DNA from: an uncultured Anaeromyxobacteraceae bacterium
GTDB lineage: Bacteria; Myxococcota_A; UBA9042; DTJE01
Direction of reading: 5' to 3'
NCBI GenBank assembly: GCA_964522105.1
Contig: CAZFVA010000004.1
Span: 24,740 to 88,739 of the forward strand
DNA: 64,000 bases
A program made the position numbers and the translations under genes. Positions 15,758-31,334 of this stretch are shown in pieces; within the stretch, counting starts at the first letter, position 1; each line of letters starts with the position of its first letter. The notes beneath the pieces are model-generated. The model was not told the origin of the DNA, searched no databases, and saw only the letters and a list, made by a program, of their open reading frames with translations.

Positions 15758-17290
15758 TATCGGGGTACTGTTGGCGTTTATACTGTTAATCGAGCAGCCG
15801 GCCGAAGGCTTTTCACACTCCAGCTCATCGGTTTCGCCGTCACAGTCGTCGTCAATCTGATCGTTGCAGATTTCGTTCGATGGTGTTCCTTCAACGGCCG
15901 CGCATTCCACGTCAAGCAGGCTCCTCGAGCAGACGAACTTGCTGACCGAAAGGCAGGCGCCCCGCCCTGCCGAACACGCTTCACCCACCGGGAAACCTTC
16001 GTCAGTGAATCCGTCACAGTCGTTATCCAGACGGTCTCCGCACAGCTCTGTATCTGCGTTGCCCGGTATCGCGTTGCATCTCGATTTCGAGGTGCCGTCG
16101 CATTCGATGACGCCGTTTCGAAGACATATTCCAAGTCCGGCGCTGCAAAGGTCGTTGATGTGAAAACCTTCGTCAGTAAACCCGTCGCAATCGTTGTCTT
16201 TTTTGTCGCATTTTTCCGACGATGATCCTGGTTCGGTGCCATCAGGAAGTGTCGAGCATGTCGGCCGCAGGGTAGTGGACGAACAGACGACGGTGCCCTT
16301 TCCGCATTCCCCCGGCGCGTTGCACATGGCGTCAAGGGCCAGCCCGTTGAAGGTCATATTTTCATCGGTCGTTCCGTCACAGTCGTTGTCCAGATGGTCG
16401 CACATCGTCTCGTCGTCAATTTCCCACCCGGGGGTATCGGGACAGATGAATCCGGATGTGCCTTCGCACAGGGGGACAATTGCTGCGCAGACGCCTTTGT
16501 CCGGGCACGTTCCGGTTGGCGGCGAGACTTCTTCGTCGGTCAGGCTGTTGCAGTTGTCATCAAGTCCGTTACAGGATTCCGTGCCGCCTGGTTTGACTAC
16601 CGGGTTGGTGTCGTCGCAGTCGCCTTCGTCTTCCGAGAACGAATCAAGATCATCATCACAATATGTGTTGGCACGCCCGGGGGTTCCGAAGTCGCCCAGT
16701 CCGTAAGGAATGCGCGCCAGACACCAGTTAGGGACGTCAACAGCTCCCGGTTCAAGCGACAGCGAGTAGCCTTTTTCAATCTGGATCCCGCCGCCGCCAT
16801 AGGACACATAATCGACCAGCTTTCCATCTCTCATCAGCAGAATGACGTCTGAAACCGGGTTCAAAGGAAAATCATTTCCGTACGAATAGTCGACAGGGAC
16901 TCTCCCGTTGACCTCCTGGTCCAGCCTGCTTCCAATCAGAAGTATCTGCCCCGGTGCAAGAATAAGTTCGGTAGCCGGGATGATGACGTGAAAGCCATCT
17001 GATGATGTCGACATCAGGACAATTCCCTGCATGTTGACCGGTGTTTCCGTCAGGTTCTGCAGTTCAAGCCACTGCCCCGATGCCGAATCGACCTTTGCCG
17101 GGTGGGCCATGATTTCGGTTATGGTTACGGTCTGCCAGTATGGGGAATCGATACCTCCGGCCCGTGGCGCGGCAAAGCCTGTTGCCGGCTGCGCCATGAC
17201 GACCGCAGATCCCGTCGCGATAAGTGTTGAAGTGATGATGATTTGTGTCAGGACTCGATTCATGTCTCTGATCCTACAGAATTGCAGCAA
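15653..17290 (-). CDS. secreted lamin-tail-domain (LTD) protein with 5 MopE-like Cys-rich repeats and a MYXO-CTERM-like C-terminal anchor
   Basis: Signal peptide. LTD motif ITEIMAHPAKVDSASGQWLELQNLTETPVNMQGIVL. Repeats CNGLDDNCNSLTDE, CDHLDNDCDGTTDE, CDKKDNDCDGFTDE, CGDRLDNDCDGFTDE and CNDQIDDDCDGETDE. C-terminus GCS...LIILALALVMTLAVARTISRKK. Confidence 0.65.
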   Translation of the reverse strand: MLQFCRIRDMNRVLTQIIITSTLIATGSAVVMAQPATGFAAPRAGGIDSPYWQTVTITEIMAHPAKVDSASGQWLELQNLTETPVNMQGIVLMSTSSDGFHVIIPATELILAPGQILLIGSRLDQEVNGRVPVDYSYGNDFPLNPVSDVILLMRDGKLVDYVSYGGGGIQIEKGYSLSLEPGAVDVPNWCLARIPYGLGDFGTPGRANTYCDDDLDSFSEDEGDCDDTNPVVKPGGTESCNGLDDNCNSLTDEEVSPPTGTCPDKGVCAAIVPLCEGTSGFICPDTPGWEIDDETMCDHLDNDCDGTTDENMTFNGLALDAMCNAPGECGKGTVVCSSTTLRPTCSTLPDGTEPGSSSEKCDKKDNDCDGFTDEGFHINDLCSAGLGICLRNGVIECDGTSKSRCNAIPGNADTELCGDRLDNDCDGFTDEGFPVGEACSAGRGACLSVSKFVCSRSLLDVECAAVEGTPSNEICNDQIDDDCDGETDELECEKPSAGCSINSINANSTPISLIILALALVMTLAVARTISRKKTCTTSYPDNNG

Positions 17291-17310: not shown

Positions 17311-19155
17311 ATGAGTACGGGCACGTCCATTGACAGCGGGGGGCTTTTCAACATAGCATCTGCGGACTATTCCGGGGGTTGCGTGAACGGTTCAACCCAA
17401 AAATCAAAGCGACAGGGACGCTCACTGTTAAGTCTGGTGGCGGCGATCTGTTGTCTGTTTCAGGCTTTTGCCGCGTCGGCTCAGGTTGCCCCGGTCGAGC
17501 ATCTCGATGAATCTGCGGGTGGCACCCAGCTTGTTGTGCCCCAGACCGATGATACCGATATCGCGACCAAACCATTCGTAACATTCGAAAATCATGGATA
17601 TTTCAGGTTCAGATTCAACACCCTCTACAATTTTGATCTCGGTATGGCGGCTCGTGGCGCCAACGACATCTGGACCCCACCTACAGCCGATTCTCAGGGC
17701 GCCAAAGGCAGCGTCGGTAATGTTTCAGACACCGCAACATCTGCAAATATAAGATTCAGGTACGCGCCCCTGGTCAGGATTGGCGAAATTCTGACAGTCG
17801 GCGGAACTTTTGATTTTCTTGATAATCTTGTTCTCGGGCAAACGCCTGACATCGGCAGTGCAGGATATCCACTGGCATTTCAGACCAGATCTCAGGTGTG
17901 GCCTTCTTCCGGGATATCCGGATTCAAGGATTCGGTACGAATCAAGTCGATGTGGGCAGATCTTTACCTGTTCGGCGTAGTCCACATCATGGGCGGCAGA
18001 ATGCCCGAGCATTTCGGGCTCGGGATCGTCAGAAACGGCGGCTATTCGCTTGATTCTGATTTCGGTGATTACGTTGACGGTCTGTTCATAAAGGCCAGGG
18101 TCGGCCCGACATATCTGCGTGTCGGCCTCGAGATTGTCGGGCAGGGCGTTTCGTCCGATTCTCCGTTCGGTTATTTTGTCTATCCTTCAGATTATTCGAC
18201 GATGGACGACACCCTCCGCTGGGTTTTCGGGGCTGATTCAACTCCTGGTACCCCTGAAGAAAAAGCGAAGCAGAAACGGGACCTTGAGAACCATAAACCG
18301 GTCGTTGACTGGGGTATATACAACGCAATCACTACGCAGAACCTGTCGTCTGACAGAATACTGACTTCCAACCTCGAGCTTGCAGGTCATGACGCCAATG
18401 CTGATGGCTACGACTACGACAAGTACACGGTCGTGCCCAGGGGCGCGTTCTTCTGGACCCCGAGCGTCTGGACAAAATTGAAGTACAGCCCGCGGCCCGG
18501 CCTTCAATTCCGCCTTGAAGTCGAACTTTCAATGACTTACGGCTGGGTTGACCACATGCAGAGCTCTGTCGAGGACATCGACACATCGAAAGATTTCCTG
18601 TCTTTCGGCGGCGCGCTCGAGTTCGACATTGATATTGGAAAGAACAATGTTTCATTCCTGACTGGTGCTGCCAGTGGCGGAAATACCCTTGGTTATTACG
18701 GAATCAACGATCGCCACACCCTCGCATGTCCTGATAACAACTGTTACAGCGCCTCGAATCCCGAAGTTTTCCTGACCAAAAATATTCATCACTTTGTCTT
18801 TAATCGCGATTACAGGATCGACTCAATTCTGTTCCGCGAAATTATCGGATCCGTGACCAACGCCTTCTATTTCAAGCCCGGTTACTACAGAACGTTCTAC
18901 AAACAGGGTGATTGGAAGGTCGGCGGCGGCGTCAGCCTGGTCGCATCATTTGCGTGTATCAAGGAAGGTACCCCCGGTGGCAAGTTGCCTCTTGGTGTCG
19001 AGCCCGGCCTGAAGCTTGACGCGACGTGGCGGGATATCCTGTCGCTTACTGCCGATGCTGCCGTCCTGTTCCCATTGTCCGGTATGAAGTATCCTGACGC
19101 CGACGATCCTTCGCCCGCTTCTGCTCTGCGAGTCCGTGCCCAGGTCGTTTTTTGA
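17311..19155 (+). CDS. outer-membrane beta-barrel protein (porin-like); alternative GTG start near 17383
   Basis: Signal peptide RSLLSLVAAICCLFQAFAASAQ. Alternating amphipathic segments. C-terminal residue is Phe (...LRVRAQVVF), typical of OMP barrels. Confidence 0.55.
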   Translation: MSTGTSIDSGGLFNIASADYSGGCVNGSTQKSKRQGRSLLSLVAAICCLFQAFAASAQVAPVEHLDESAGGTQLVVPQTDDTDIATKPFVTFENHGYFRFRFNTLYNFDLGMAARGANDIWTPPTADSQGAKGSVGNVSDTATSANIRFRYAPLVRIGEILTVGGTFDFLDNLVLGQTPDIGSAGYPLAFQTRSQVWPSSGISGFKDSVRIKSMWADLYLFGVVHIMGGRMPEHFGLGIVRNGGYSLDSDFGDYVDGLFIKARVGPTYLRVGLEIVGQGVSSDSPFGYFVYPSDYSTMDDTLRWVFGADSTPGTPEEKAKQKRDLENHKPVVDWGIYNAITTQNLSSDRILTSNLELAGHDANADGYDYDKYTVVPRGAFFWTPSVWTKLKYSPRPGLQFRLEVELSMTYGWVDHMQSSVEDIDTSKDFLSFGGALEFDIDIGKNNVSFLTGAASGGNTLGYYGINDRHTLACPDNNCYSASNPEVFLTKNIHHFVFNRDYRIDSILFREIIGSVTNAFYFKPGYYRTFYKQGDWKVGGGVSLVASFACIKEGTPGGKLPLGVEPGLKLDATWRDILSLTADAAVLFPLSGMKYPDADDPSPASALRVRAQVVF

Positions 19156-19249: not shown

Positions 19250-19501
19250 ATGTTCGGACTGGGAACTTACGGTGCCTGGGTAGTATTTGATCTGCGGCTT
19301 GCGGCTTTCCTGCTTTCGCTTTCAATCGGGATTTCATTGCTGATTATTGGCTTGTCTGCCCGCCGGGGCCGTCACTGGCATCAGAATCTTACGCTGTTCG
19401 TTTCGCTTGTTTCGGTGTTCTGTCTGGTTGGATTTATTCTGCTTCAGACCGTTTTTCATTACCCGGTGTTCGTTCTGCGCGATATTTTTCCAATCGATTG
19501 A
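19250..19501 (+). CDS. small 2-TM membrane protein (hypothetical; holin-like topology)
   Basis: 83 aa with two hydrophobic helices separated by RRGRHWHQN. Convergent with the CIS hub gene. Confidence 0.3.
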   Translation: MFGLGTYGAWVVFDLRLAAFLLSLSIGISLLIIGLSARRGRHWHQNLTLFVSLVSVFCLVGFILLQTVFHYPVFVLRDIFPID

Positions 19502-19529: not shown

Positions 19530-20675
19530 TCACATGCCCATGTCAGTTCGTGCCACTTCAACTTTTGACGTAAAGCCCTTTCGCGCCGGATCAAGGCTGT
19601 GCACAGCTCTGGTAACAAGATAACGCCCACTGAACAGCTTGCCGAACCCTTTGAATTCAACGGTATTTCCGGCAAGGATTTGTGCGTTGCCCTTTGTTTC
19701 CATCCTTCCTCTGATAAAGCGCAAAGCAGTTCTTGTCAGAATCCTGGCTGCGATTTCTTCAGCTTCCTTTTCTGACCAGACAGGTATGTCAGTAATTCTA
19801 AGTACTCTTCCGGCATCCGGGTCTTCCCAGAAAGCCTTTCCCACGGCAACTCCGCCGCTTTCTCCGCCGAATTCAAGGTCTGGTGTTTCGGCTTTGCCGG
19901 AAATAACTTTCTTGTTAACCGGGTCCCAGGAGCGAATTTCAACGGCTCTGTATTGTCTGGATGCGCACAGCCTGAATTCGGCGTCACCGGCCAGAATGCC
20001 TCCGTTGCTGCAGGCGTCTGTCGTTCTGACAAAAACCAGAGAGGCGTCATCAAGAACTTCCGGCTTAAGAAAGTTCAATTTTCTGTTGTTGTCCGGCTCA
20101 GATTTTATGAAACCGCCGTTGGCCAGTGCAAGCCAGTCGCATAAAGCCCGGTCAGAAGCGTTCATCTGCGGGATGTAGTAGTGACCGTCTCTCCCCGGAA
20201 TGGTTTTACCTGGCTCAAGCGCCGAATCTGGCCCGCTGTCTCCGCCGGATTCCCTGATGATTTCCTTCAGCAGAGCATCTGATTGCACCGACGGTTTTCT
20301 GCCATCACCCCATACGCGGGTTCTTGAACCCATTGACAGTCGGTGGGAAAAATCGAATCCTGAAATGGTCACAAATGAAGGTTGTTCTACGGAAAAATGG
20401 GGCTCGATGGTGTTAATTTCCCCAAGGATCAACCCGTTTTCCTTGCTTGATTGTCCAATGCCCAGGCGGACTTCCATGCCCGTTTTGATTTCATCCAGAA
20501 GCTCAACTCCAGCTCGAAGTGTCATTTTGATTTCGAATGAGGACGGTTCCATCAGGCGCAGGTCAGCCGTTGCTTTTTCCACCAGGGCTGCAAATGGCAC
20601 TCCGGTTTTTCCTGCAGAATCTTTGCCGGCTATGGAGATATTGCAACTCGCGGTGTCTCCATTCATGTCATTCAC
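19530..20675 (-). CDS. phage late control gene D (gpD/gp27-like) baseplate hub protein of the CIS cluster
   Basis: 381 aa. C-terminal GRYLVTRAVHSLD...KVEVAR typical of the Phage_GPD family. No gp5-like spike extension. Last gene of the operon, overlapping the upstream gene by 4 nt. Confidence 0.75.
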   Translation of the reverse strand: MNDMNGDTASCNISIAGKDSAGKTGVPFAALVEKATADLRLMEPSSFEIKMTLRAGVELLDEIKTGMEVRLGIGQSSKENGLILGEINTIEPHFSVEQPSFVTISGFDFSHRLSMGSRTRVWGDGRKPSVQSDALLKEIIRESGGDSGPDSALEPGKTIPGRDGHYYIPQMNASDRALCDWLALANGGFIKSEPDNNRKLNFLKPEVLDDASLVFVRTTDACSNGGILAGDAEFRLCASRQYRAVEIRSWDPVNKKVISGKAETPDLEFGGESGGVAVGKAFWEDPDAGRVLRITDIPVWSEKEAEEIAARILTRTALRFIRGRMETKGNAQILAGNTVEFKGFGKLFSGRYLVTRAVHSLDPARKGFTSKVEVARTDMGM

Positions 20676-21391
20676 TCCTTGTTCTTGCGTCCAAGCTTCA
20701 GTTTGATTCCATCCAGGTCGGCCAGAGGGTTTTCAATTCCACTGGCAACGGCGATGTTCTGCCACTCTTCCGGGGAGTCGTAGAATCTTGTTGCAATTCC
20801 CGTCAGGGTGTCGTCAGTGCCAGCCGTGATCTCCCGGTCTCCGTTGCCCGTGGCGGTCTGTCTGGAAATCTGGTCACCGGCAGGTGTTGCCTCGATCAGA
20901 TCAATTTCCACGCGGGCCCGGACCGGGGTTCCATCGGACAGGAACATGACATAAGCGACCTTGATTCTTTTGACATACCAGGGGCATGAATTGTAGGAGT
21001 CGTTTTCGGACATGAAACGGCCCCATTGAAATAGAACTTTAGGGGGGCGCTTGAGGTCGGGGTCCTGGTGTACAAGGGCCTCCAGCTTGTCAATGTAGCG
21101 GCGTCTGACGTTTTGCCGTTCTTCGTAAGTATCAAAATACAGATTTCCAAGGGCCAGCTTTCTGGAGGTGCCATGGGTCCACTCCTTGTCTCCGGAGTCC
21201 AGTCCGTGGCGACTGTGTTCCTTGAATTCCGTGGATTTCTCGACTGTTATGGCTGCGGGGTTGTAGTTGAACACGAAATCAGCGCCGCCATCCCGGGGAA
21301 AACCGCCCCAACCTCTGTCGATGACATGAAGAAATGCTTTGGAGAGCGAACCGTTTGAAGCGTGACATCCAGAAAGAAAATCCATTACCAA
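20672..21391 (-). CDS. tube-initiator-like protein with C-terminal LysM domain (Afp7/Pvc7-like)
   Basis: N-terminal tube-like segment FVFNYNPAAITVEKSTEFKEH. C-terminal LysM-like DTLTGIATRFYDSPEEWQNIAVASGIENP. Translationally coupled to both flanking genes. Confidence 0.6.
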   Translation of the reverse strand: MVMDFLSGCHASNGSLSKAFLHVIDRGWGGFPRDGGADFVFNYNPAAITVEKSTEFKEHSRHGLDSGDKEWTHGTSRKLALGNLYFDTYEERQNVRRRYIDKLEALVHQDPDLKRPPKVLFQWGRFMSENDSYNSCPWYVKRIKVAYVMFLSDGTPVRARVEIDLIEATPAGDQISRQTATGNGDREITAGTDDTLTGIATRFYDSPEEWQNIAVASGIENPLADLDGIKLKLGRKNKE

Positions 21392-23556
21392 CCTCTTTCA
21401 AATTCCTGTTCGATCGTTCTCATGATTCGCTCGTAGACTTTTTCAGTCAGTATTTCGACGTCTGAAAGATCGGGATTATCCAGGACTCGGTTGTAAGTTT
21501 TATTCTGGTCTTCTTCTGGTACAAAACTATCGCTGTTCGGGTTGTCGTTTCGATTTGCTGCGTTTCTGCCTGTCAGTATTGAGCTTTGTTCGGCAGCCCA
21601 TAAGCCGGGTTGTCCAGTCTGCAACTGGTTTTCGCCCGCCCATTGATTGACGGCTCCATTGTGTCCTGAAGACATATCGTTCTGTGAGGACTTGCGGCCT
21701 GACTGGTTCAGTCCATGCAGATTGTTTGGTGTCGATAGTGTTCCTGAACTTGCCCGTTCTTTTTTGTCGAAGCTCGGGAGCGTCATCTCTGGTGATTTGA
21801 AAGAACTGACTGTTTCGTTGTGCAGACTGACAGTGGGTAGATTGTCTTGCGCAGCGTCAGTGGCATAGCCCGATTCCGCTCGTTTTGGCAGTTCGGGTGT
21901 CAAGTGGGATTGCAGCAGCGTCGGATACAGCAAAGATTTTGTTGCTTCGATGGCGGCTGAAGGCTGCCGGGCACCTGGCATGTGGATGTCATCATTATTG
22001 CCGGACTGCCTGTCCCCCGTTGAATCCGCTGATCGCGACAGCTTAAAGGCTCCGAGTTCAGTGGCAAATGGTGATAGCGAAGCATAAGGTCTAGTTGTGG
22101 CCGGTTCATATGGCTCTGCAGACAAGTCTGTGAATGTGCGCGTGGGTGCAGGCTCTTTCCGGGTAATGTTTTCCATTTTCGTGGACAGAGGCTTAATCGG
22201 TGATATGCCGGGGTAGTCAACGAGGTTCGAATAATTCCCGCGCGTGGACAGCCCGGGCTCAGTCGCCTGTTGTAAGACAGGGCGCTTGCGGACCTCTTTC
22301 TCCGGGTTGCTTCGAACGGTTGTTTCAAACTTATCGGATTGATTTCTGTCATAAGTCGACAGGAGCTCCGGCTTGTCTGGTAAAGCTTGTTCGGGCTTAA
22401 CTGACGTTATTAATGCGGCAAATTCAGGTTGAAAGTTTTTGAAATCAGAACCGGACATTTTACCGTATTTTTCAGGTATGGATTCGATTGCGCCGGTACT
22501 GTCTTGTTTCTGTGCGTTCGGTCTGGCTGGCAAGGCGGCACATTCATTCCTGCGGCTGTGCGCTGAAACGGTTTCCGGTTGGCTCGAAGCATTTGCAAGA
22601 TAGATGGAATCTGACAATTCTGATGCTGAATAAGTCGCGCTCAGTCTGCTTTTGAATTGATCGGCGCGGTTAACAGTTTGAAAAAAGGAGTTGTCAGTTC
22701 CTGCATCAATAGTTGTCCGGCGACCATTCTGCGCCGTGACATTGTTTCTTTCCTGTACCGATGCGGCTTTGTCGAATGTCGGCGTGCGCCCGGCTTCAGT
22801 GTTCAGGATCTGCGTAAGGTTTTTTGCGGAAGAAATGCAGCAGGTGGTGGCCTCGTCACCCGGCCTGAATTTTTCGGTGACTGATGGTGTGTTTTGAAGT
22901 ATTGACGGTGGTTCTGCCGGTCGAGTTGACAGCGCAAGGCCATCCTGGTGCCAGCCATTTGAATTGATTGAACTTATCGTGTGTTTCGGGCAGTCGGCCT
23001 TCCTGCCGGCCTTTCTTTCGGTCCGAATGGTCACAGCTTCGCCGTATGGCTGCAGTCCTGTTGAGCTGTCGGCCGAAGTGTGTGGCGGGCTTTTAATAGC
23101 GGTATTTCTGCCCTGGATATCTTTGTCGGCTAAAACCCCTGAGTACTCGGATCGGGATGAAAAGGTGTTGATAATATTTGTGGAGCAATCTGTTCTATGG
23201 ACGCAGCAGTCTTCAAAGCTGGTCGAGGCTTCGCGTTTTGCGTATGCGGGGACAAAGGTAAGGTTGCTCCTGCCGTGCGTTGCCAGCAAAGATTGGCAGA
23301 TGTCCGGAGAGCGCAAGTCTCTGTGTGTCAGCCCGGCGTGTCTTTCTGTAATTCGGTCGTATTCATGTGGCTCTTCGTTCTTTCGTTTTGACAGCCTCAG
23401 GTTTGTTTGAAGTGGAAAGTCTACCTCGAGGTCCTGCTGTTCACTGCTTTGCGCGTTGCTGCCAAGTGTTGTCTTGAAAGGTCTGGCCCCGATTGTTTTT
23501 ACTGGAAGGCTTTGATACCTGTCGGCAATGCGCCCGAAAGGGCCGGTCATTTCCAT
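21385..23556 (-). CDS. tape-measure-like protein; low-complexity S/T/N/Q/P-rich with a conserved-looking C-terminus
   Basis: 723 aa. Sits between the tube gene and the tube-initiator/hub genes (the conserved TMP position). Long polar low-complexity body with an ordered-looking C-terminus LTEKVYERIMRTIEQEFERGW. Confidence 0.5.
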   Translation of the reverse strand: MEMTGPFGRIADRYQSLPVKTIGARPFKTTLGSNAQSSEQQDLEVDFPLQTNLRLSKRKNEEPHEYDRITERHAGLTHRDLRSPDICQSLLATHGRSNLTFVPAYAKREASTSFEDCCVHRTDCSTNIINTFSSRSEYSGVLADKDIQGRNTAIKSPPHTSADSSTGLQPYGEAVTIRTERKAGRKADCPKHTISSINSNGWHQDGLALSTRPAEPPSILQNTPSVTEKFRPGDEATTCCISSAKNLTQILNTEAGRTPTFDKAASVQERNNVTAQNGRRTTIDAGTDNSFFQTVNRADQFKSRLSATYSASELSDSIYLANASSQPETVSAHSRRNECAALPARPNAQKQDSTGAIESIPEKYGKMSGSDFKNFQPEFAALITSVKPEQALPDKPELLSTYDRNQSDKFETTVRSNPEKEVRKRPVLQQATEPGLSTRGNYSNLVDYPGISPIKPLSTKMENITRKEPAPTRTFTDLSAEPYEPATTRPYASLSPFATELGAFKLSRSADSTGDRQSGNNDDIHMPGARQPSAAIEATKSLLYPTLLQSHLTPELPKRAESGYATDAAQDNLPTVSLHNETVSSFKSPEMTLPSFDKKERASSGTLSTPNNLHGLNQSGRKSSQNDMSSGHNGAVNQWAGENQLQTGQPGLWAAEQSSILTGRNAANRNDNPNSDSFVPEEDQNKTYNRVLDNPDLSDVEILTEKVYERIMRTIEQEFERGW

Positions 23557-24068
23557 GTTGAAAATCCGGCTTGAAGCGCCCCTTTCTTTTCGTTCTGGCT
23601 GCTGAAGTCAAATGATTCGTAAATGATTTCAATTTCTTCAAAAAGAAACCTGCTGGAATTTGAATCAAGAACAGGCCCTGAATATGCGGATAAAAAGGCG
23701 CCAAAAAGATTAAAACGCCCCGTCTCTTCTCCTTTGTCGTCGTTGATGATGATCGAAATACTTGTTCGTGCCTGTGGTTCTCTTGTCGGTCTGGATGAGG
23801 ATTTCATCCAGGAAACCAACTCTCTTGAGGCCGCGATGAACCCCCTTTTCAGCGTGAGAGGGGTAAATTTTCCCGGCCCTGGAAGAATGACCGGACCTGT
23901 CAGGTTGCCACCTTCTGAAAAGCTGAGGGTTTCTGATCGCCATTGAAGTCCGCGGGCTTCGGAAAATCTGCCGTGACAAATTCCATCTATTTCAATGGCA
24001 AATGAAAAGGATGTCAGAGGATCTGAGCGTCCGCTGCCGCCAGCGAGTTGTTCTAATGGATTGATCAT
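23547..24068 (-). CDS. contractile tail tube protein, paralog 2 (T4 gp19 / Afp1/5 family)
   Basis: FSFAIEIDGICHGRFSEARGL...ETLSFSEGG pattern typical of gp19-like tube proteins. 173 aa. Confidence 0.8.
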   Translation of the reverse strand: MINPLEQLAGGSGRSDPLTSFSFAIEIDGICHGRFSEARGLQWRSETLSFSEGGNLTGPVILPGPGKFTPLTLKRGFIAASRELVSWMKSSSRPTREPQARTSISIIINDDKGEETGRFNLFGAFLSAYSGPVLDSNSSRFLFEEIEIIYESFDFSSQNEKKGALQAGFSTWK

Positions 24069-24100
24069 CTGGACCCCCTTTGCTTTGAAAAAACTGTGCC

Positions 24101-25594
24101 CTATACGGTAGAGTCCATTCCAATCGAGATTCTGACGAATTTAGCCGGCTTGACTGGAGCCAGATCTATTTCGGCATGTATTCGGCCGGCCGAAATCTCT
24201 TCCGGGGGATTTGTTTCGAAATCGCACTTGACCCGCCATGCCTGTTCTGAAGTTTCCCCTGCGAGCATGCCTTTTTTGTGGAGTTCTCTTGCGAAGGCAG
24301 AAAGCTTTCTTGCGATCGTTTCCCACAGCGTTGCTTCATTCGGTTCGAATGCAGCCCACGCAAGACCCGGCTCGAGAGTTTTTCGTACCGCGTTAATGAA
24401 TCTGGCGGATCCCAGGTCCCATCCATCGGTGGTGACGGCTGCCCAGGGCCTGACACCTTGATGCTGGATAATGGTGTTCACGCCTGATGTGGCCAGGGTT
24501 GCCGCTGAGCCTGTGTTTGTAAACGAGGTCAGCTCTGCAACGTCGGTCAGTTTGATATTTGCCGGTGTTCGATGCGGGCCTGTTTCGTTGTCAATACGTG
24601 CGAAAAGCCCAGCGGCGTATGCGGAAGGAGGAGTCACCATTCCGGACGATGAAACAACCCACGGGTAATAGGCCGCTGCATGTCTTGATTGAAGTGGAAC
24701 GAACCAGTCGATTACTTCCTTCAAGCTGCAATGAGGCGGTGCGTCCAGGATGGCAATAGAGGCGCCTGTTCTGGTTGTGGCATTTACCAGAGCCATCTGT
24801 ACTTTCAGAACGCTGCTGATGTTCAGGAATGGCCCCATGCCAAGTTTTGCAGCTCTTGAATGCAGCCAGAATAAATCCGGGGCAAGAAAAGAGTCACATT
24901 CTTCTGTTCTGAGCAGGGCTTCAAGCGGAGAGTCTTCTTTTTGGAGTCTTTCGTTGGTGGAACCTGTGAAATCATCAGGCTCTGTCTCGTCGATAGCGTC
25001 CCGCCCTCCGGACATGATGATGTTCAGGCATTCGGGGATATTGGACAGATCGACTTGAAAAAGTCTTATTAAACGTTCTGCCGTGTTTGATCTGGCCGAC
25101 TGTAGATCAAAAAATTCGACAGTTTTTCTATTCAAGGCCGTTTTAAGCGCGCAAGAAATTTCGCCATTATGGATAGATAACGAAATGTTATTTCCAAACG
25201 CGCCTCTCTCCAGGGCTTCGGCACTGAAGATCGTTTTTCCTGATGAGTCAGTCAGGTTGTATCTTGCGCGGGAGGCATCTCTGGCAATAACTCTGCTTAC
25301 GAAGCAGCGTTCCCCGCCATTCATGAAATAGGCTCTGATGGAAGGTTCAAGCAGGCCACCGTCCGGAGATCCTCCAAATATTTGAATAAATTCATTTGGG
25401 CTGTGGATTTCCATGGCCTTTCTTTCCGGCCCGCGAACAGTCAGTCCCATAAACCCGGCCACACCAGTTTTGCGCAGCATGAGGGGTTGTTCTTGACGTA
25501 CAGAAGGTACAAAGAGGATGCCCGGTGTTTGATTGGTCATCTCTGTTTGATAACCCTGGTCTGTTCTGGTTGCGTCATGACGCTCTGGAATCAT
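24101..25594 (-). CDS. contractile tail sheath protein, paralog 2 (likely true start at MTNQTPGILF, about 25540)
   Basis: Sheath N-terminus TPGILFVPS...TGVAGFMGL. The segment ...YFMNGGERCFVSRV is equivalent to the sheath-1 motif FFSNGGGRCWIVNV. 497 aa. Confidence 0.85.
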   Translation of the reverse strand: MIPERHDATRTDQGYQTEMTNQTPGILFVPSVRQEQPLMLRKTGVAGFMGLTVRGPERKAMEIHSPNEFIQIFGGSPDGGLLEPSIRAYFMNGGERCFVSRVIARDASRARYNLTDSSGKTIFSAEALERGAFGNNISLSIHNGEISCALKTALNRKTVEFFDLQSARSNTAERLIRLFQVDLSNIPECLNIIMSGGRDAIDETEPDDFTGSTNERLQKEDSPLEALLRTEECDSFLAPDLFWLHSRAAKLGMGPFLNISSVLKVQMALVNATTRTGASIAILDAPPHCSLKEVIDWFVPLQSRHAAAYYPWVVSSSGMVTPPSAYAAGLFARIDNETGPHRTPANIKLTDVAELTSFTNTGSAATLATSGVNTIIQHQGVRPWAAVTTDGWDLGSARFINAVRKTLEPGLAWAAFEPNEATLWETIARKLSAFARELHKKGMLAGETSEQAWRVKCDFETNPPEEISAGRIHAEIDLAPVKPAKFVRISIGMDSTV

Positions 25595-25802
25595 TTATTT
25601 CTCTGTTTATTTCTGATATCTGCTGGACCCATTTGTGTCTTTCCCGGTGTTCCATTTCAAGGATTTCTTCCTGAGACCAGTGAAAATGGTACGCGACGAA
25701 GGCTACCTCCCTGTACAACTGGTCCAGGGGGTAGCGAATCATTCCCCCGGCTGGCAGTCTCCGCAGATGTCGTATTCGATTGATTGCGCACATGCCGGAC
25801 AT
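25575..25802 (-). CDS. small hypothetical protein in the −1 frame relative to the upstream small ORF (candidate assembly-chaperone partner)
   Basis: 75-aa ORF overlapping the 124-aa ORF by 64 nt. Its ATG follows a TAA in its own frame (AGC ATT AAA TGT vs TAA ATG). Confidence 0.4.
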   Translation of the reverse strand: MSGMCAINRIRHLRRLPAGGMIRYPLDQLYREVAFVAYHFHWSQEEILEMEHRERHKWVQQISEINREINDSRAS

Positions 25803-26113
25803 TTAATGCTGGCGATCGTTGAACCGTTTTCGTTGACCCGTTTGTACAATTCCTGCAGGTAGGCAAGGTCTGAAGCGTATAAATCTTCAATCACCGAAGG
25901 ATTAATTGATTTGAGATCTCCAAGGCTTGTGATTACGCGGGAAAGCAGTATTACCACCAGATAGGCTTTGTTCTGCTGGACTCTGTAATCCTGGAGCGGC
26001 GCAATTTCGTCTTTCGCGGTTGCCAGTCTCATCAGGCCCTTTTTGTGTACGCGCCCTTCCTTGTCTACAAAACCTTTTGGCAGAGTGAATTCGAATTCTG
26101 TTTTGAAGCTCAT
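25739..26113 (-). CDS. small hypothetical protein with C-terminal zinc-ribbon-like CPAC...CGDC (candidate tail assembly chaperone)
   Basis: 124 aa. AAGGA Shine-Dalgarno upstream. Sits between tube and sheath genes where phage tail chaperones usually lie. C-terminus IKCPACAQSIEYDICGDCQPGE. Confidence 0.45.
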   Translation of the reverse strand: MSFKTEFEFTLPKGFVDKEGRVHKKGLMRLATAKDEIAPLQDYRVQQNKAYLVVILLSRVITSLGDLKSINPSVIEDLYASDLAYLQELYKRVNENGSTIASIKCPACAQSIEYDICGDCQPGE

Positions 26114-26137
26114 GTTTTTCCTTTTTTGTTAGTGGGT

Positions 26138-26569
26138 TCAGGTGCGTTCAATTTTCTCTACTGCAAGTTCGATCTCTTCCACATTGACGTCAGATCCTTT
26201 GCCATCAAGAGAAAAGCCTTTCCATTTGCACGGCCAGGCATCGAAGAAGTTGTAGCGGACGATTTCTTCGCCATCGTCTGCGCATAGAATGATCGAGCCG
26301 GATTTGCGTTCTGCCTTGCCTTCGATCACTTTTTTCCGCCATTTCCAGAGTTCATCACTGGCAACATAGCCGCGCTTGAGCACAATGTTGGAGTACTTGG
26401 TTCTGCCAGGTCTTTTTCGCAATACGAGGTCATCACCATCCTGGTATTCGACGATCTCGGTTTCAGAGTCGAGGCCATCCACATTGCGAAAAGCCGCTTG
26501 AGTTACGCCTTCAATTTCAACTTTGAAATTGAAGTTTCCAATGTGGTCAAAATCCCTTCTGTTGTTCAT
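26138..26569 (-). CDS. contractile tail tube protein, paralog 1 (gp19 / Afp1 family)
   Basis: NFNFKVEIEGVTQAAFRNVDGL...EIVEYQDG, the classic tube-protein N-terminus. 143 aa. Confidence 0.85.
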   Translation of the reverse strand: MNNRRDFDHIGNFNFKVEIEGVTQAAFRNVDGLDSETEIVEYQDGDDLVLRKRPGRTKYSNIVLKRGYVASDELWKWRKKVIEGKAERKSGSIILCADDGEEIVRYNFFDAWPCKWKGFSLDGKGSDVNVEEIELAVEKIERT

Positions 26570-26601
26570 TCCGGTCCTCCATTCAAAGAATAGTCAGGTT
26601 G

Positions 26602-27810
26602 TTAATCCTTGACGTCCGCGCCGCCAGCCATCTGTCCGATCCTGAAGACAACGAATTCGGCAGGCTTTACCGGACTCATGCCGATATCGACGACGACCCT
26701 GCCTGCGTTTATTACTTCTTCGGGGTTAGTTTCCGAGTCGCATTTGACAAAAAAAGCTTGTTCCGGGGTTTTGCCGAAGAGGGCGCCCTGGCGCCACAGG
26801 CGCAGCAGAAATGCGGTAAGGTCGCGGCTGAGGCGCTTCCAGAGTCGCTCGTCGTTCGGTTCAAAAACGACCCAACCGGTGCCTCTTTCGATTGATTGTT
26901 CAGTCATCAGAAACAGGCGTCGCACATTTACATATCTCCAGACAGGGTCATCAGAAAGGGTTCTTGCGCCCCAGACTCTGATTCCGGAGCCTGGAAGGGC
27001 GCGAATGCAGTTGATGCCGCGCGGGTTAAGAAGGTCCTGTTCACCTGTTGTAATAAGGTACTTGAGGCCAAGAGCACCCCGGACAAGTTCGTTTGCCGGT
27101 GCTTTGTGAACGCCCCTTTCGGCGTCGCAGCGGGCATAGATGCCAGCTACAAAACCGGATGGTGCGGCCATGACACGGCCATGCACAGGGCTGGCAACTT
27201 CAATCCAGGGGAAGTAAATTGCGCCATGTTTTGAAGGCCTTGGCCTGGGGATGGTTTCGACCCCGCCTTTTTCAATTGTTTCGGGGCAGTCGAGAATTGC
27301 GAATCTGTATTTCATGATTTCGCAGTGAGTAAGGACAGCGTCCTGAATTTCGGGATCTGTTATGCCGGGTATGGCAACCAGACTGATGTCATCCAGCGTT
27401 TCAAGGGACTTAAGACCTGTTTTTCTACCTATGCCATCGTCGCGGCCGGCAAAACGGGCAATTTTGTCGGGTCTTGTCTTTCTGGCACTTTTCTTCGGTC
27501 GCTCCGGGTTGTCCGGCTCGATTTCTTCTGTATCGCCAGATTCGCTGAGGCCGACGTTGACGATCCAGCAGCGTCCCCCGCCGTTGGAAAAGAAACCGTA
27601 GACTGCCTGCGCAAGGTGCTCACTGTCCGAGAAGTCACCGAAGGTCTTTGTGAACATGCTCCAGTTGCAACAAAGGAACGGTTCATCAATCGGTCCTTTT
27701 CTGCATTCTCCGAGGAATGCCGCTGTACTTGAGCCGACCATTTCGAGAGGTCGTGCGCCGGAATCGACTTCCTCTACATAAACGCCGGGGGAGAGGTAAT
27801 TTGCTGCCAT
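26602..27810 (-). CDS. contractile tail sheath protein, paralog 1
   Basis: MAANYLSPGVYVEEVDSG...TAAFLG...FFSNGGGRCWIVNV and a C-terminal sheath domain. 402 aa. Confidence 0.85.
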   Translation of the reverse strand: MAANYLSPGVYVEEVDSGARPLEMVGSSTAAFLGECRKGPIDEPFLCCNWSMFTKTFGDFSDSEHLAQAVYGFFSNGGGRCWIVNVGLSESGDTEEIEPDNPERPKKSARKTRPDKIARFAGRDDGIGRKTGLKSLETLDDISLVAIPGITDPEIQDAVLTHCEIMKYRFAILDCPETIEKGGVETIPRPRPSKHGAIYFPWIEVASPVHGRVMAAPSGFVAGIYARCDAERGVHKAPANELVRGALGLKYLITTGEQDLLNPRGINCIRALPGSGIRVWGARTLSDDPVWRYVNVRRLFLMTEQSIERGTGWVVFEPNDERLWKRLSRDLTAFLLRLWRQGALFGKTPEQAFFVKCDSETNPEEVINAGRVVVDIGMSPVKPAEFVVFRIGQMAGGADVKD

Positions 27811-27842
27811 TTTGAGACTCCTGCCGTTTGCTGATAGTCAAG

Positions 27843-28436
27843 TCAGCGATTCGGGACAATCGAGAGGTCCCGCGCTGATACGCGCCTGAGGTCTTTCGAT
27901 CTGCGTTCGGATTCGATCCGGAATCGGACCAGGTAGAACAGTGTCGGCTTCATGTCACGCCCAAGGGTCTTCCAGAGGGAGAGGCATTCTGAAAAGTCGG
28001 TTTCGAGGTCCGGAAAGACTTCAAGGTGGTCGTTTTCAAGAAATGAGTCCCCGATAAGATCGCGGCCGGATATGAAGGGTTTTTCCAGCATGGATTTGAT
28101 GCAGAGACCGAGGAGAGTGTGTTCTTCCGGGGGAGTTCGAGCGTGTGCAGAGATGGCCAGTCGAGCGTGGAGTATCGCCGGGGCGTCTTCGTAGTATTCG
28201 ATCTTTTTTCCGGTTGCGTCTGTGCTGGTAACAATTCGATCGGTGCGTTCGCGGTAGCCGGGAGCGAACCGGATTCCGCAGATAAACATGCTGATTACGG
28301 GGAGGTTGCGAAGATTATCGCGAGTTGGAGTGTCTGTTGAGATGCGGACGGTTTCGAAACCTTCGCGGGAAGTTGTATCGCGGACGATTTTTTCAATGGT
28401 TGGGCAGATGTCCCGGATAACGTCAAAACGCGACAT
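27843..28436 (-). CDS. DUF4255-like tail terminator/cap protein (Afp16/Pvc16-like)
   Basis: 197 aa. N-terminal pattern M..DVIRDI...VRISTDTPTRDNLRNLPVISMFICGIRFAPGYRER parallels the DUF4255 consensus (V.ISFDAPTR...PTLNLFLYDIRENR). First gene of the operon. Confidence 0.55.
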   Translation of the reverse strand: MSRFDVIRDICPTIEKIVRDTTSREGFETVRISTDTPTRDNLRNLPVISMFICGIRFAPGYRERTDRIVTSTDATGKKIEYYEDAPAILHARLAISAHARTPPEEHTLLGLCIKSMLEKPFISGRDLIGDSFLENDHLEVFPDLETDFSECLSLWKTLGRDMKPTLFYLVRFRIESERRSKDLRRVSARDLSIVPNR

Positions 28437-28484
28437 GGGTGTCTCTTGTTTGAGCGATTTGCGTCTTTCGAAGTTTGAGCTGAT

Positions 28485-31334
28485 TTATTTCGGAAAAAGG
28501 ATGTCTTTGAGGGCTGTTCCGGTGCAGGACATTGGATTATCTGCAAGCTGTTCCGGGGTTCCGGAAGCGACTACATAGCCGCCGCCTTCGCCGCCTTCGG
28601 GGCCAAGATCGATAATGTGATCGGCGACTTTCATGATTTCCAGGTTGTGTTCGATCATCAGGACCGTGTTTCCCACTGAAACCAGGCTGTCTATTACCTT
28701 CAGAAGCTTTGCGACATCGTCGAAGTGCAGGCCGGTGCTCGGTTCATCCATTATATAGATGGTGCGGCCGGTCGCTGATCTTGCAAGCTCCCTGGACAGT
28801 TTGATGCGCTGGGCTTCGCCGCCTGAAAGGGTTGTAGATGGCTGGCCGAGGCCGATGTATCCAAGGCCTACGGCCTGAAGGGTCGTCAGGATCTTGGAAA
28901 TGCCCCGGGTGTTCTTGAATACCTCGGCGGCCTGGTCAACGGTCAGGTTCAGGACGTCCGAGATGCTCAGGTCTTTGTATTTGACACGCAGGGTCGCTTC
29001 ATTGAAGCGTTTGCCGCCACATTCGTCGCATGTCACGAAGACGTCGGGAAGAAAGTGCATTTCAACCCGGATGGCCCCGGCGCCCTGGCAGTTTTCGCAC
29101 CGCCCGCCGCGAACATTGAAAGAGAACCTGCCCGGTTGGTAGCCGAACGTTCTGGATTCCCGGGTTTCGGCAAAGACTTTTCTGATGTGATCAAAAAGCT
29201 TTGTGTAGGTGGCGGGGTTGGACCTGGGGGTTCTGCCGATAGGTTCCTGATTGATTACAATGACTTTGTCCAGATGTTTCAGGCCTTCGATGCTGTCAAA
29301 CGGCAGGCAGTGGGACGCTGACTGGAAAAAGTGGTTTTGAAGCGCCTTGCTTAATGTTTTTGTTACCAGTGACGACTTTCCGGCACCGGAAACGCCGGAA
29401 ACTACAGTGAAGGTGCCAAGGGGGATCGTTACATCAATGTTTTTAAGGTTATGACCTGTGGCGCCTTTGATGATCAGAGAGTGTTCCGATTTTCGGCGCT
29501 GGTCAGGTATCGGGATCGTTTTTCTACCCGAGATGTAGGCGCCGGTCAGCGATGATGCGGACTTCAGCATGTCGGCCGGCCGGCCTTCGAATATGATTTC
29601 GCCGCCGTGTATGCCTGCGCCGGGTCCGAACTCGATGATGTGGTCCGCGGCCATTATTGCGTCCCGGTCATGTTCGACTACAAGGACTGTGTTTCCAAGA
29701 TCCCGAAGCCTTTCAAGGGTTTGAATCAGCCTGCCGTTGTCCCTCGGGTGAAGGCCTATTGAAGGTTCATCAAGGATGTACGTGACTCCTGTCAGCTCGC
29801 TGCCCAGTTGACTGGCAAGTCGAATTCTTTGTGCTTCACCGCCTGAAAGGCTTGCGCCGCCGCGTGACAGGGTCAGATAGCCAAGTCCCAGATTCTTCAA
29901 AAGATTCAGTCGCGAAAGTATTTCCCGGCTCAGCTCTTCAGTGACCGGGGAGTTTTGTGAGTTAATCCTGATGTTTTCAATTACTTCGATAAGGTTTCCG
30001 ATTGCCATGTCTGACAGGTCAGAGATGCTGAAACCGGAGATTTTTACAGCCAGAGCTTCCTGTTTGAGCCTGTGTCCCCCACATTTCTCGCACGGCTGGT
30101 CAGTCAGAAAACGCTGGTAGTAGGCCCGCATTTCTTCGGATTTTGTTTCCCGCAACCGCCGCAGCAGCATGTTTGCGACCCCTTCGAACCGGACTGCCAG
30201 AGAGCCGTTGAAGCTCTTGGATTTCCATTCGACAGGAATTCGCTGGCTGTGACCGAACAGGATTAAATGTTGATGTGCAGTCGGGAGGTCTTTGAATGGA
30301 ATCTCCAGATCAATATTATGCTTTCTTGCATAACCCTGCAGTATTCCACCGGTTAATCCGTTGTCTTCAATTGCCTTCGCCCACGGTTCAATTGCGCCTG
30401 CGGATATTGAAAGGGTGGGATCCGGGATTACTTTTGAAGGGTCAATGGTCAGCGAGCGCCCGAGTCCGTTGCATTCCGGGCATGCACCGGCAGGATTATT
30501 GAAAGAAAACAATTGTGGAGTCAGTTCCGGGAATGAAACTCCGCAGTCTTCGCATGCCAGGTGTTCAGAAAAGATCCTTTCCTGACCGTCTTCAAGAATC
30601 ACAATCACGCGGCCTTTGCCGACCCTGAGTGCGGTTTCAATGGAATCTGTCAGTCTGGCCTCTGATCCTTCACGAATCAGAGCCCGGTCTATAATCACGT
30701 CCAGGTCGTGTTTTTTGTTTTTGTCGAGCGGTTCAAGTTCCGAAATTCTTGAAATAACGTCATTTATCCGGACTCTGACGAACCCGTCGGCTTCAAGCGA
30801 TTTCAGTAGATCCTTGAATTCGCCTTTTCGGTTGCGCACGACAGGTGCCAGGATTGTTGTTTTTGTGCCTGCCGCGTCTTTTGAAGTCGAAGTTTCTGCG
30901 GCAAGAGAAATAATTTCCCGCAGAATCTGGGCCGGTTCCTGTTTTGAGACGGTCTTTCCGCACAGGTGACAGTGTTGCCGTCCGGCTCGTGCAAACAGGA
31001 CGCGCAGATAATCATGGATTTCGGTGATCGTTCCGACTGTCGAACGCGGGTTTGATGATGCGCTTTTCTGTTCAATTGCTATGGTTGGCGTAAGACCTTG
31101 AATTCCATCATACTTTGGCCTTTCGAGCTGACCCAGAAACTGACGGGCATACGTTGAAAGGGATTCGATGTAGCGGCGCTGGCCCTCTGCAAAAACAGTG
31201 TCGAATGCCAGCGAAGTTTTCCCTGAGCCGCTCACCCCGGAAAAAACTACAAAACGTAGTTTAGGTATTTTGACCGTGACATTTTTCAGGTTGTGCTCTT
31301 TCGCGCCGGTCACAATTATGTGGTCGCTTGTCAT
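28485..31334 (-). CDS. uvrA: excinuclease ABC subunit A
   Basis: 949 aa. Two ABC modules (GVSGSGKSSL / [10 protein letters not shown] Walker A, LSGGEAQR signatures) and zinc-finger Cys pairs. Confidence 0.95.

Follow-up and report, generated by a model that had tools for sequence, protein, structure and literature searches.

Introduction

The closest described relatives of the locus treated here are the contractile injection systems (CIS) of Streptomyces coelicolor (CIS-Sc), Algoriphagus (AlgoCIS) and Anabaena (tCIS). In the Streptomyces particle the first sheath layer binds the gp25-like Cis9, which is linked to the Cis11/Cis12 wedges (PMC12237407). Single deletions of Pvc4, 8, 9, 11 or 12 abolish the particles of the Photorhabdus virulence cassette (PVC), and CIS surveys require that trunk and baseplate genes co-occur, so that clusters lacking any of them are discarded (both from PMC12210884, the deletions as cited there). 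Systems resembling extracellular CIS (eCIS) are already known in Myxococcota, and the tube gene is among the most highly expressed genes in some metagenome-assembled genomes (MAGs) of this phylum in situ (PMC11937823). Here we describe a ten-gene CIS locus at positions 19530-28436 of a stretch of DNA from an uncultured Anaeromyxobacteraceae bacterium; the whole stretch, 64 kb in length, is called the window.

The locus is probably the trunk half of a split, two-operon CIS locus, and the organism would carry the baseplate operon elsewhere in its genome. The system is best explained as a chromosomal, vertically inherited CIS of the non-Afp lineage (Afp, antifeeding prophage) in an uncultured Myxococcota lineage with an unusually low G+C content (GC). 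The machine itself is most likely a known one whose genes are laid out in an unusual way, rather than one of a new kind.

Organization of the locus and genes absent from the window

Ten minus-strand open reading frames (ORFs) lie head to tail at the locus, in the transcription order cap-sheath-tube-chaperone-like-DUF6760-sheath-tube-long protein-Cis7-hub. A previous reading made from the letters alone (the sequence-only reading) had described ten coupled genes with gaps of at most 32 nt. An ORF check found every one of them at the coordinates given beforehand and the spacing was as described, with gaps of 32, 32, 24 and 32 nt and overlaps of 4-20 nt at the remaining junctions. All ten ORFs are intact and translationally coupled, and the GC of the cluster is that of its surroundings in the window.

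Every window ORF of at least 110 aa was scanned against Pfam. Hidden Markov models (HMMs) built from related loci for gp25, Baseplate_J, Cis12/Tail_P2_I, the spike, PAAR and the Cis15 ATPase were in addition run against all window ORFs with filters off and E<=10. Neither approach gave a gp25, Baseplate_J, Tail_P2_I, spike, PAAR or Afp15-type ATPase gene in the 64 kb, which bears out the absence of gp25, Baseplate_J, a gp5/PAAR spike and the Afp15 ATPase noted in the sequence-only reading. The single above-noise match in the local HMM run was ClpX, the sole AAA+ protein of the window. The Pfam scans found no capsid, portal, terminase, integrase, holin, endolysin/lysis or fibre genes in the 64 kb and no type VI secretion system (T6SS) family; the sheath at the locus is of the single-chain phage type, not TssB/TssC. 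There is no tRNA, repeat boundary or Rfam match in the 64 kb, and the window scans gave no toxin or ATPase genes after the operon. The absence of head, packaging and integration genes, together with the presence of CIS hallmarks, supports the earlier assignment to a CIS core rather than a prophage tail.

Gene order and baseplate genes in related loci

One genome per species was scanned with an alignment of Cis7, which gave 80 loci that were annotated with iteratively built HMMs. The order (ATPase)-cap-sheath-tube-chaperone-DUF6760-(sheath)-tube-long protein-Cis7-hub-(spike/PAAR)-gp25-Cis11 (Baseplate_J)-Cis12 was found in 45 of the 80 fetched species loci, and it recurs in Myxococcota, Chloroflexota, Actinomycetota, Gemmatimonadota, Acidobacteriota and archaea. 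The gene order in the window is the usual layout of the non-Afp CIS lineage, which includes the Streptomyces CIS, AlgoCIS and the Anabaena tCIS. It does differ from the order in Afp and PVC, as had been pointed out from the sequence alone, but the description as non-canonical does not hold, the order being usual in non-Afp CIS loci. At least 3 kb of sequence follows the hub gene in 61 species loci; baseplate genes were found there in 45 and none were found in 16.

In sister Myxococcota loci with a hub of 364-398 aa (L030-34, 36, 38, 40, 44, 46, 57, 97 and 105) the baseplate genes follow directly after the hub. They encode a Zn-ribbon protein (62-65 aa), GPW_gp25, Baseplate_J (about 1000 aa), Tail_P2_I/PASTA, a Cis13-like protein (510-526 aa, with a CIS13-family N-terminus) and two FHA proteins, one of which carries a VWA domain. 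The stretches seen of these contiguous loci are without an Afp15-type ATPase gene, a Phage_base_V spike gene and a PAAR gene, and the same holds for the stretches seen around the stand-alone baseplate operons of the relatives.

A Baseplate_J profile from the sister lineages gave matches that fit no contiguous locus, and look-ups of cluster members linked two of them to trunk-bearing MAGs. In GCA_045863395.1 (Myxococcales bacterium AMX-MBFR-64) the trunk is found on BTVJ01000080.1 (L035), where the hub is followed by a convergent gene and then by uvrA and a PP2C gene; this is the site occupied in the window, with the trunk operon inverted. The baseplate operon of this MAG (L108), which has the order Zn-ribbon-gp25-Baseplate_J-Tail_P2_I-Cis13-like-FHA-FHA, is centrally placed on BTVJ01000018.1, a contig of 113 kb. 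Its neighbours are Kazal, DsbH and PhoPQ-related genes at one end and DctPQM genes at the other, with no hub, Cis7 or sheath gene within 10 kb. In GCA_013360285.1 (MAG_56) the trunk is on JABWCM010000075.1 (L029) and the baseplate operon on JABWCM010000016.1 (L182), with the same flanks as in L108. Further baseplate operons without an upstream trunk gene are L114 (SLLD01000254.1, after acyl-CoA metabolism genes) and L121. The split loci are broken, in every case, between the hub and the Zn-ribbon genes. A binning artefact is an unlikely cause of the split: two MAGs, each from a separate study, show it, both halves have syntenic contexts and the GC matches. The sequence-only reading had left three options, namely a split locus, a streamlined baseplate-less variant and a decaying remnant, and the baseplate operons on other contigs in these two related MAGs favour the first. 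The Baseplate_J matches P0298 and P0203 had been taken tentatively for members of trunk-only lineages, but both come from ordinary contiguous loci.

The layout of the window is shared by about 12 Myxococcota MAG species, here called clade A (L017-L027 and L052). They share the ten genes and their order, a terminal hub of 374-412 aa and no baseplate gene within about 8.8 kb after the hub. Upstream of the operon is uvrA, and downstream are genes for an AhpC-like protein, VKOR, an 82-aa membrane ORF (homologue of the window ORF at 19250-19501), Lnt, HIT and ClpX. Protein identity between the window and clade A is 51-56% for Cis7. Against the Myxococcota relatives it is 64-67% for the sheath, 69-72% for the chaperone and 45-72% over the trunk as a whole. 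ClpX of the window is 66-69% identical to that of the relatives, compared with 73-94% among the other relatives, for which the main sheath is about 85% identical. The window has a GC of 52.5%, against 62-73% in nearly all relatives with this type of CIS, and the synteny uvrA-CIS...HIT-ClpX is retained despite this. The window organism is an outlier of the trunk-only group. Ten intact, coupled ORFs maintained across that divergence point to a trunk operon under purifying selection, and because the trunk-only layout is common to about 12 species it is not a product of decay.

The 16 loci without baseplate genes after the hub include four spirochaete loci with a rearranged order (L043, L048, L050 and L053; Spirochaetota MAGs and Alkalispirochaeta alkalica). 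In these an AAA ATPase gene, the chaperone gene and the DUF6760 gene come after the hub, the genes for Tail_P2_I, a Cis13-like protein and a small FHA protein are located upstream, and no gp25 or Baseplate_J gene is found within 10 kb on either side. Because of these four loci, split or rearranged CIS loci are not confined to Myxococcota.

The Zn-ribbon gene (CPxC...CxxC, 62-65 aa) is always directly upstream of gp25, both in contiguous loci (L097, 9235-9432; L030, 12115-12306) and in stand-alone operons (L108, 9337-9525; L182, 9401-9589; L114, about 3457-3645; L121, about 4870-5058). It occupies the place of the spike/PAAR gene in other CIS loci, and its product is a candidate that may serve as a tip on the needle-less hub. 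Two FHA genes, one with VWA, are found in all Myxococcota-type baseplate operons; in L097, L105, L108 and L182 they are downstream of Tail_P2_I.

The hub

The last gene of the operon has two possible starts: GTG 20675, which gives a 4-nt overlap, and ATG 20666, from which gene callers begin and which gives 378 aa. The product has no Pfam match. The NCBIfam model VgrG_rel aligns to it at model positions 53-349 of 547, and an exhaustive phmmer search gave 1436 relatives, many of them stand-alone proteins of 345-400 aa; the closest are stand-alone proteins of 381-399 aa. In the Streptomyces CIS, AlgoCIS, Anabaena tCIS, PVC and Afp, whose Cis8/VgrG chains have 530-643 aa, a family profile covers about 340 N-terminal residues of these chains. 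Compared with the PDB, the profile matches 9gtr_q with E 6.5e-32 over residues 32-354 of 643, and it also matches the 329-aa R2 pyocin hub.

An AlphaFold2 (AF2) model built on the family alignment had a pLDDT of 86.9 and a pTM of 0.86. Foldseek aligned it over its whole length to Cis8 of tCIS, AlgoCIS and CIS-Sc, with a template modelling score (TM) of 0.76-0.77 for the query and about 0.5 for the target. The best structural matches were AlgoCIS and tCIS (TM 0.77, E 1e-29). For the stand-alone hubs Mu gp44, MuSo2 43-kDa protein, R2 pyocin hub and T4 gp27, TM(target) was 0.63-0.78, with Mu gp44 and the pyocin R2 hub at 0.72-0.76. The earlier proposal of a gpD/gp27-like hub is thus backed, in spite of the missing Pfam match, by the agreement of VgrG_rel, the family profile and AF2/Foldseek. 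The modelled protein corresponds to a gp27/gpD-like hub without a gp5-like needle, that is, to the N-terminal half of Cis8/VgrG. The protein lacks the needle/OB part, and the window has no separate Phage_base_V or PAAR gene. Metagenome contigs of the window organism are 99.5-100% identical to the window and have five single-nucleotide polymorphisms in the hub gene, two non-synonymous and three synonymous.

The other gene products

The identity of nine of the ten genes is clear from profile and structure matches (Table 1). The cap, previously described as DUF4255-like, the two sheaths and the two tubes were confirmed by Pfam, TIGR02241 and PDB matches. Matches of the main sheath to 8bky_A and 8bl4_V have E values of about 1e-123 to 1e-120, and the best solved relatives of the first tube are the AlgoCIS and Anabaena tCIS tubes. 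The second tube is probably the tube adaptor, in the Cis5/Cis1b position. For the LysM tube initiator proposed earlier, the initiator part stands (CIS_tube, 9gtp_P), while the LysM part is degenerate, falls below the Pfam threshold and can be recognised only in an alignment.

Table 1. Genes of the trunk operon in order of transcription (positions in the window)
Position	Strand	Product	Length	Evidence
27843-28436	-	Cap/tube terminator, Cis16 (Afp16/Pvc16)-like	197 aa	Pfam Pvc16_N (formerly DUF4255) E 3.9e-11; Streptomyces Cis16 9gts_0A E 1.1e-6
26602-27810	-	Main contractile sheath, Cis2-like	402 aa	Phage_sheath_1 and Phage_sheath_1C; Streptomyces CIS sheath 8bky_A E 3e-123
26138-26569	-	Inner tube, Cis1-like	143 aa	Phage_T4_gp19 E 1.3e-40; TIGR02241; AlgoCIS tube 7adz_1a E 1e-21; Anabaena tCIS tube
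25739-26113	-	Tail-assembly-chaperone-like, C-terminal CxxC...CxxC	124 aa	phrog_508 E 1.1e-7
25575-25802	-	DUF6760 small protein	75 aa (longest ORF)	Pfam DUF6760 E 7.5e-18
24101-25594	-	Second sheath paralogue	497 aa	Phage_sheath_1 and Phage_sheath_1C; 8bky_A E 1.9e-49
23547-24068	-	Second tube paralogue	173 aa	Phage_T4_gp19 E 4e-26; TIGR02241; CIS1/CIS5 families below cutoff
21385-23556	-	Long low-complexity S/T/P/N/Q-rich protein, tape-measure (Cis14) position	723 aa	No family match; position and short C-terminal helix
20672-21391	-	Tube initiator, Cis7/Afp7-like, degenerate LysM C-terminus	239 aa	Pfam CIS_tube E 4e-18; Streptomyces Cis7 9gtp_P E 9e-11; Afp7
19530-20675	-	Central hub, gp27/Mu gp44/P2 gpD-like, no gp5-like needle	381 aa	VgrG_rel; family profile against PDB; AF2 and Foldseek

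The chaperone-like protein has no Pfam family, and its own family, searched against the PDB, gave no relative there. The family is 50-72% identical across Myxococcota, Chloroflexota, Blautia and the archaeon Methanolobus, and the protein is conserved far beyond the structural proteins around it. In the related loci the DUF6760 gene always comes directly after the chaperone-like gene. Gene calls on the metagenome contigs give it as 55 aa from ATG 25742, with a 4-nt overlap.

The 723-aa protein has no family match in Pfam, NCBIfam or PHROGs and is of low complexity, not helical overall. With its positional counterparts in the relatives, which are 921-1329 aa long, it shares only a C-terminal helix motif, ...YERI...E.ERG. 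The tape measure suggested earlier is a positional call, with this short helix as its one conserved feature, and the family searches added no match; from the same two features the protein would be a length determinant or cargo. Three independent metagenome contigs of the window organism break off within the gene (their ends are at 21396, 21891 and 21984), and a further one begins at 21810. These ends, within 21396-21984 in the C-terminal third of the gene, suggest strain heterogeneity or a sequence that breaks assembly.

Flanking genes

The gene uvrA (28485-31334, minus strand) runs in the same direction as the CIS genes and its stop is 48 nt before the cap gene; beyond it are a PP2C phosphatase gene, dnaG and rpoD. 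Past the hub gene are recO, a HIT-family gene and clpX (ClpX, 8842-10104). The synteny of the flanking housekeeping genes (uvrA, dnaG, rpoD, recO and clpX) is kept across species. A scan of the spacer between uvrA and the cap gene (28436-28485) gave no terminator-like hairpin and no promoter-like site. Counts in the promoter/terminator scan did not exceed the shuffled expectation, with no signal either between uvrA and cap or 3' of the hub. Because the 48-nt spacer is without a hairpin, read-through from uvrA into the trunk operon is possible. The adjacency to uvrA is also kept in clade A, with an extra ORF of 142-199 aa in between, and in L035 with its inverted trunk operon. The PP2C gene (31496-32275, plus strand) is divergent from uvrA and near the trunk operon, as it is in L035 (17359-18117); no kinase was seen in the window.

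On the other side, the sequence-only reading had the hub gene as the last of the operon, followed by a convergent small membrane ORF and an outer-membrane barrel gene, and this description fits. The small ORF (19250-19501, plus strand) encodes 83 aa and has a homologue in clade A (E 1e-24) that is 3 kb farther off, beside VKOR and Lnt; for this reason it is regarded as a syntenic neighbour and not as part of the CIS. The next gene (17311-19155, plus strand) encodes a 614-aa TIGR04551-family protein (E 1e-78, below cutoff); it has a signal peptide and ends in Phe, which agrees with an outer-membrane barrel.

Two large secreted-looking proteins with Cu-binding_MopE repeats (15653-17290, minus strand, and 32310-34556, plus strand) bracket the uvrA-CIS region, and one of them also has a lamin-tail domain. 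The lnt gene, near the hub in the relatives, is 40 kb off in the window (60802-63414). The stretch 45826-48661 (plus strand) holds an operon of three overlapping genes (264, 195 and 486 aa), which converges with a HEAT-repeat gene and whose first product is coiled-coil-like; the three have no similarity to the FHA/VWA genes of the baseplate operons in relatives.

Assembly model and alternative explanations

If the locus is the trunk half of a split CIS, the hub and the Cis7 initiator would form the base on which the tube adaptor and then the tube polymerise. The two sheath paralogues would polymerise around the tube, with the chaperone pair and the long protein in the tape-measure position assisting or limiting assembly, and the Cis16 cap would terminate the tube. 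Nucleation and triggering of the sheath would fall to the gp25-like sheath initiator, the Baseplate_J/Tail_P2_I wedge and the Cis13-like fibre, encoded outside the locus. In this lineage group the baseplate genes (Zn-ribbon, gp25, Baseplate_J, Tail_P2_I, Cis13-like, FHA and FHA/VWA) appear to have moved to an operon of their own that is not linked to the trunk. To judge from its genes, the window organism would make particles.

Several observations weigh against this reading. The baseplate operon of the window organism was found neither in the 64 kb, whose ORFs were scanned with NCBIfam and PHROGs as well as with Pfam and the local HMMs, nor in any outside search. When 5.8 billion proteins were searched with the Baseplate_J profile, the best 120 of 1968 matches were all from higher-GC lineages. 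Metagenome DNA was scanned with a Baseplate_J motif limited to GAA codons, a restriction meant to favour an organism of 52% GC; this gave 67 loci, none from samples Ga0485166/7 and none belonging to this organism. In IMG/VR there was no match for Baseplate_J, and the best match for the sheath was 67% identical. Past the 5' end of the window, where a 4-kb contig is all that is on record, none was found either. Clade A likewise has no baseplate operon tied to the same assembly. The bins of MAGs can be chimeric, and the two split-bearing MAGs are cousins of the window organism (Cis7 37-40% identical, against 51-56% for clade A). Finally, the hub is only 31-36% identical to that of all relatives, the second sheath has 497 aa compared with about 598 aa and is 30-35% identical to the second sheath of the relatives, the long protein has 723 aa compared with 921-1329 aa, and the LysM part of Cis7 is below threshold. 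This divergence of the baseplate-proximal parts is attributed mainly to the long branch of the lineage and its shift in GC; it could also stem from relaxed constraint after loss of the baseplate.

The latter would make the locus a degenerating remnant, in which the baseplate half has been lost and the trunk is heading to pseudogenes or is kept without a working particle. We consider this unlikely. The unsuccessful searches for baseplate genes fit a remnant, as do the hub, second sheath, long protein and LysM region, which are the most divergent or shortened parts relative to all relatives, and the lack in the window of the 142-199 aa ORF found ahead of cap in clade A. On the other hand, the ten ORFs are intact, with their 4-20 nt overlaps and gaps of at most 32 nt kept at a distance at which ClpX is 66-69% identical. 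Sheath, tube and chaperone are conserved at levels like those of housekeeping proteins, and the hub gave a confident, complete AF2 model. An intact ten-gene operon in about 12 species, at 45-72% protein identity, contradicts the decaying remnant proposed as one option from the sequence alone; the trunk-only layout is old and stable.

A truly baseplate-less, streamlined system, in which hub and Cis7 would suffice as the base for sheath and tube, or unrelated host proteins would provide it, without a wedge of the gp25/gp6/gp7 type, is very improbable. Trunk-only operons are kept in many species, for clade A and the window no baseplate operon is tied to the same genome, and, speculatively, the second sheath paralogue might act as initiator. 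However, all characterised contractile systems require gp25 and wedge proteins (PMC12210884 and PMC12237407). The sister lineages have wedge genes right after the hub, and both of the trunk-only MAGs that could be checked hold a baseplate operon on another contig, which makes the streamlined variant offered by the sequence-only reading an unlikely one. The stand-alone baseplate operons (L108, L114, L121 and L182), moreover, make sense only as partners of trunk-only loci. There is correspondingly only a slim chance that the window lineage, and perhaps clade A, has a wedge-less contractile or rigid tail-like machine, which might be expressed by read-through from uvrA and so be coupled to DNA damage.

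The sheath, tube, chaperone pair, long protein and stand-alone hub similar to Mu gp44 and P2 gpD are all parts known from phage tails, and an Afp15-type ATPase is absent in tailocins as it is here, but a contractile prophage tail module or R-type tailocin is effectively refuted: head, spike, wedge, fibre and lysis genes are missing, as are an integrase, tRNA and repeat boundary in the 64 kb, the cluster has the GC of its surroundings and housekeeping flanks in conserved synteny, the Pvc16_N cap, CIS_tube initiator, DUF6760 and duplicated sheath and tube are hallmarks of CIS, and the closest solved homologues are components of CIS and not of phage tails.

Comparison with known systems

The trunk half of a split CIS thus remains the preferred explanation, and it can be compared with the characterised systems component by component. 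CIS-Sc, a cytoplasmic system (PDB 8bky, 8bl4, 9gtp, 9gtr and 9gts; PMC10066040 and PMC12237407), provides the closest solved sheath, Cis7, Cis16 and N-terminal half of Cis8, and it shares with the window the two tube paralogues and the non-Afp gene order. It is encoded in one cluster that includes Cis9, Cis11, Cis12 and Cis15, none of which is found at the window locus. Its Cis8 is a 643-aa VgrG-like spike, whereas the window has a hub of 381 aa only, and its sheath has 534 aa with an extra inserted domain, compared with 402 aa in the window. CIS-Sc lacks a tape-measure gene (PMC12237407), while the window has the 723-aa protein at that position. The host of CIS-Sc is a monoderm actinomycete and that of the window system a diderm myxobacterium.

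AlgoCIS (7adz, 7aeb and 7aef) and the Anabaena tCIS (7b5h) gave the best hub and tube matches and share the set of trunk components. Unlike in the window, their genes form contiguous loci that include a complete baseplate and an ATPase, and their Cis8 (580-589 aa) is a fusion of hub and needle. AlgoCIS is extracellular and tCIS is anchored to the thylakoid; these modes cannot be transferred to the window system.

In Afp and PVC (class I eCIS) the cap, sheath, tube, Afp7 and the N-terminal half of Afp8 are homologous to the products in the window. The gene order there is tube-sheaths-tube-Afp6-Afp7-Afp8-gp25-PAAR-Afp11-12-fibre-TMP-ATPase-cap (TMP, tape-measure protein), with toxins downstream. 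One operon thus holds three sheaths, a fused VgrG-like Afp8, PAAR, gp25, Afp11/12, the fibre, Afp14, Afp15 and toxins, in contrast to the window.

The hubs of Mu (gp44), P2 (gpD) and R2 pyocin are stand-alone, gp27-like, needle-less proteins of about 330-390 aa, like the hub in the window. These systems have a separate spike (Mu gp45, P2 gpV, PA0616) and wedge genes in the same module, whereas the Myxococcota-type CIS showed neither a Phage_base_V nor a PAAR gene in either of its halves.

Structural genes of the T6SS are commonly dispersed over several loci, and its FHA proteins and PP2C phosphatase are tied to the control of assembly. The baseplate operons of the relatives carry two FHA genes, and a PP2C gene is near uvrA and the trunk operon in the window; by analogy, this combination recalls the threonine-phosphorylation control by Fha, PpkA and PppA. 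The split offers a natural test of co-regulation and shows which parts have to be regulated in concert: the baseplate half travels with two FHA genes and the trunk half is beside uvrA and PP2C. The systems differ in that the T6SS has a TssB/TssC sheath in place of the single phage-type sheath, and the window has a Pvc16_N cap and Cis7 but no TssJLM, TssK or ClpV.

Because survey pipelines discard loci in which trunk and baseplate genes do not co-occur, split CIS loci would be systematically under-counted or misread as remnants. The Myxococcota-type CIS, with no Afp15-type ATPase and no recognisable needle or PAAR, are abundant, active and little-studied machines of predatory bacteria. The window holds a real but ordinary CIS trunk, which should not be scored as a baseplate-less novelty before the rest of the genome has been seen; its apparently non-canonical composition is largely explained by a gene order typical of the lineage and by the split of the locus.

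A limited full-text literature search with targeted term look-ups, covering parts of the texts, gave no description of a conserved separation of trunk and baseplate operons, and the available part of PMC11937823 does not mention separate trunk and baseplate operons. From the same phylum as the window organism, eCIS-like clusters have been described in Myxococcota MAGs of the Zhenbei seamount (PMC11937823) and in dbeCIS (PMC6899500). The former resemble the window in having a sheath and a gp19 tube without other phage genes. They are described there, by analogy with Afp and PVC, as clusters of the phage-like protein-translocation structure (PLTS) or eCIS type, whereas the lineage of the window is more divergent and has a GC of 52%.

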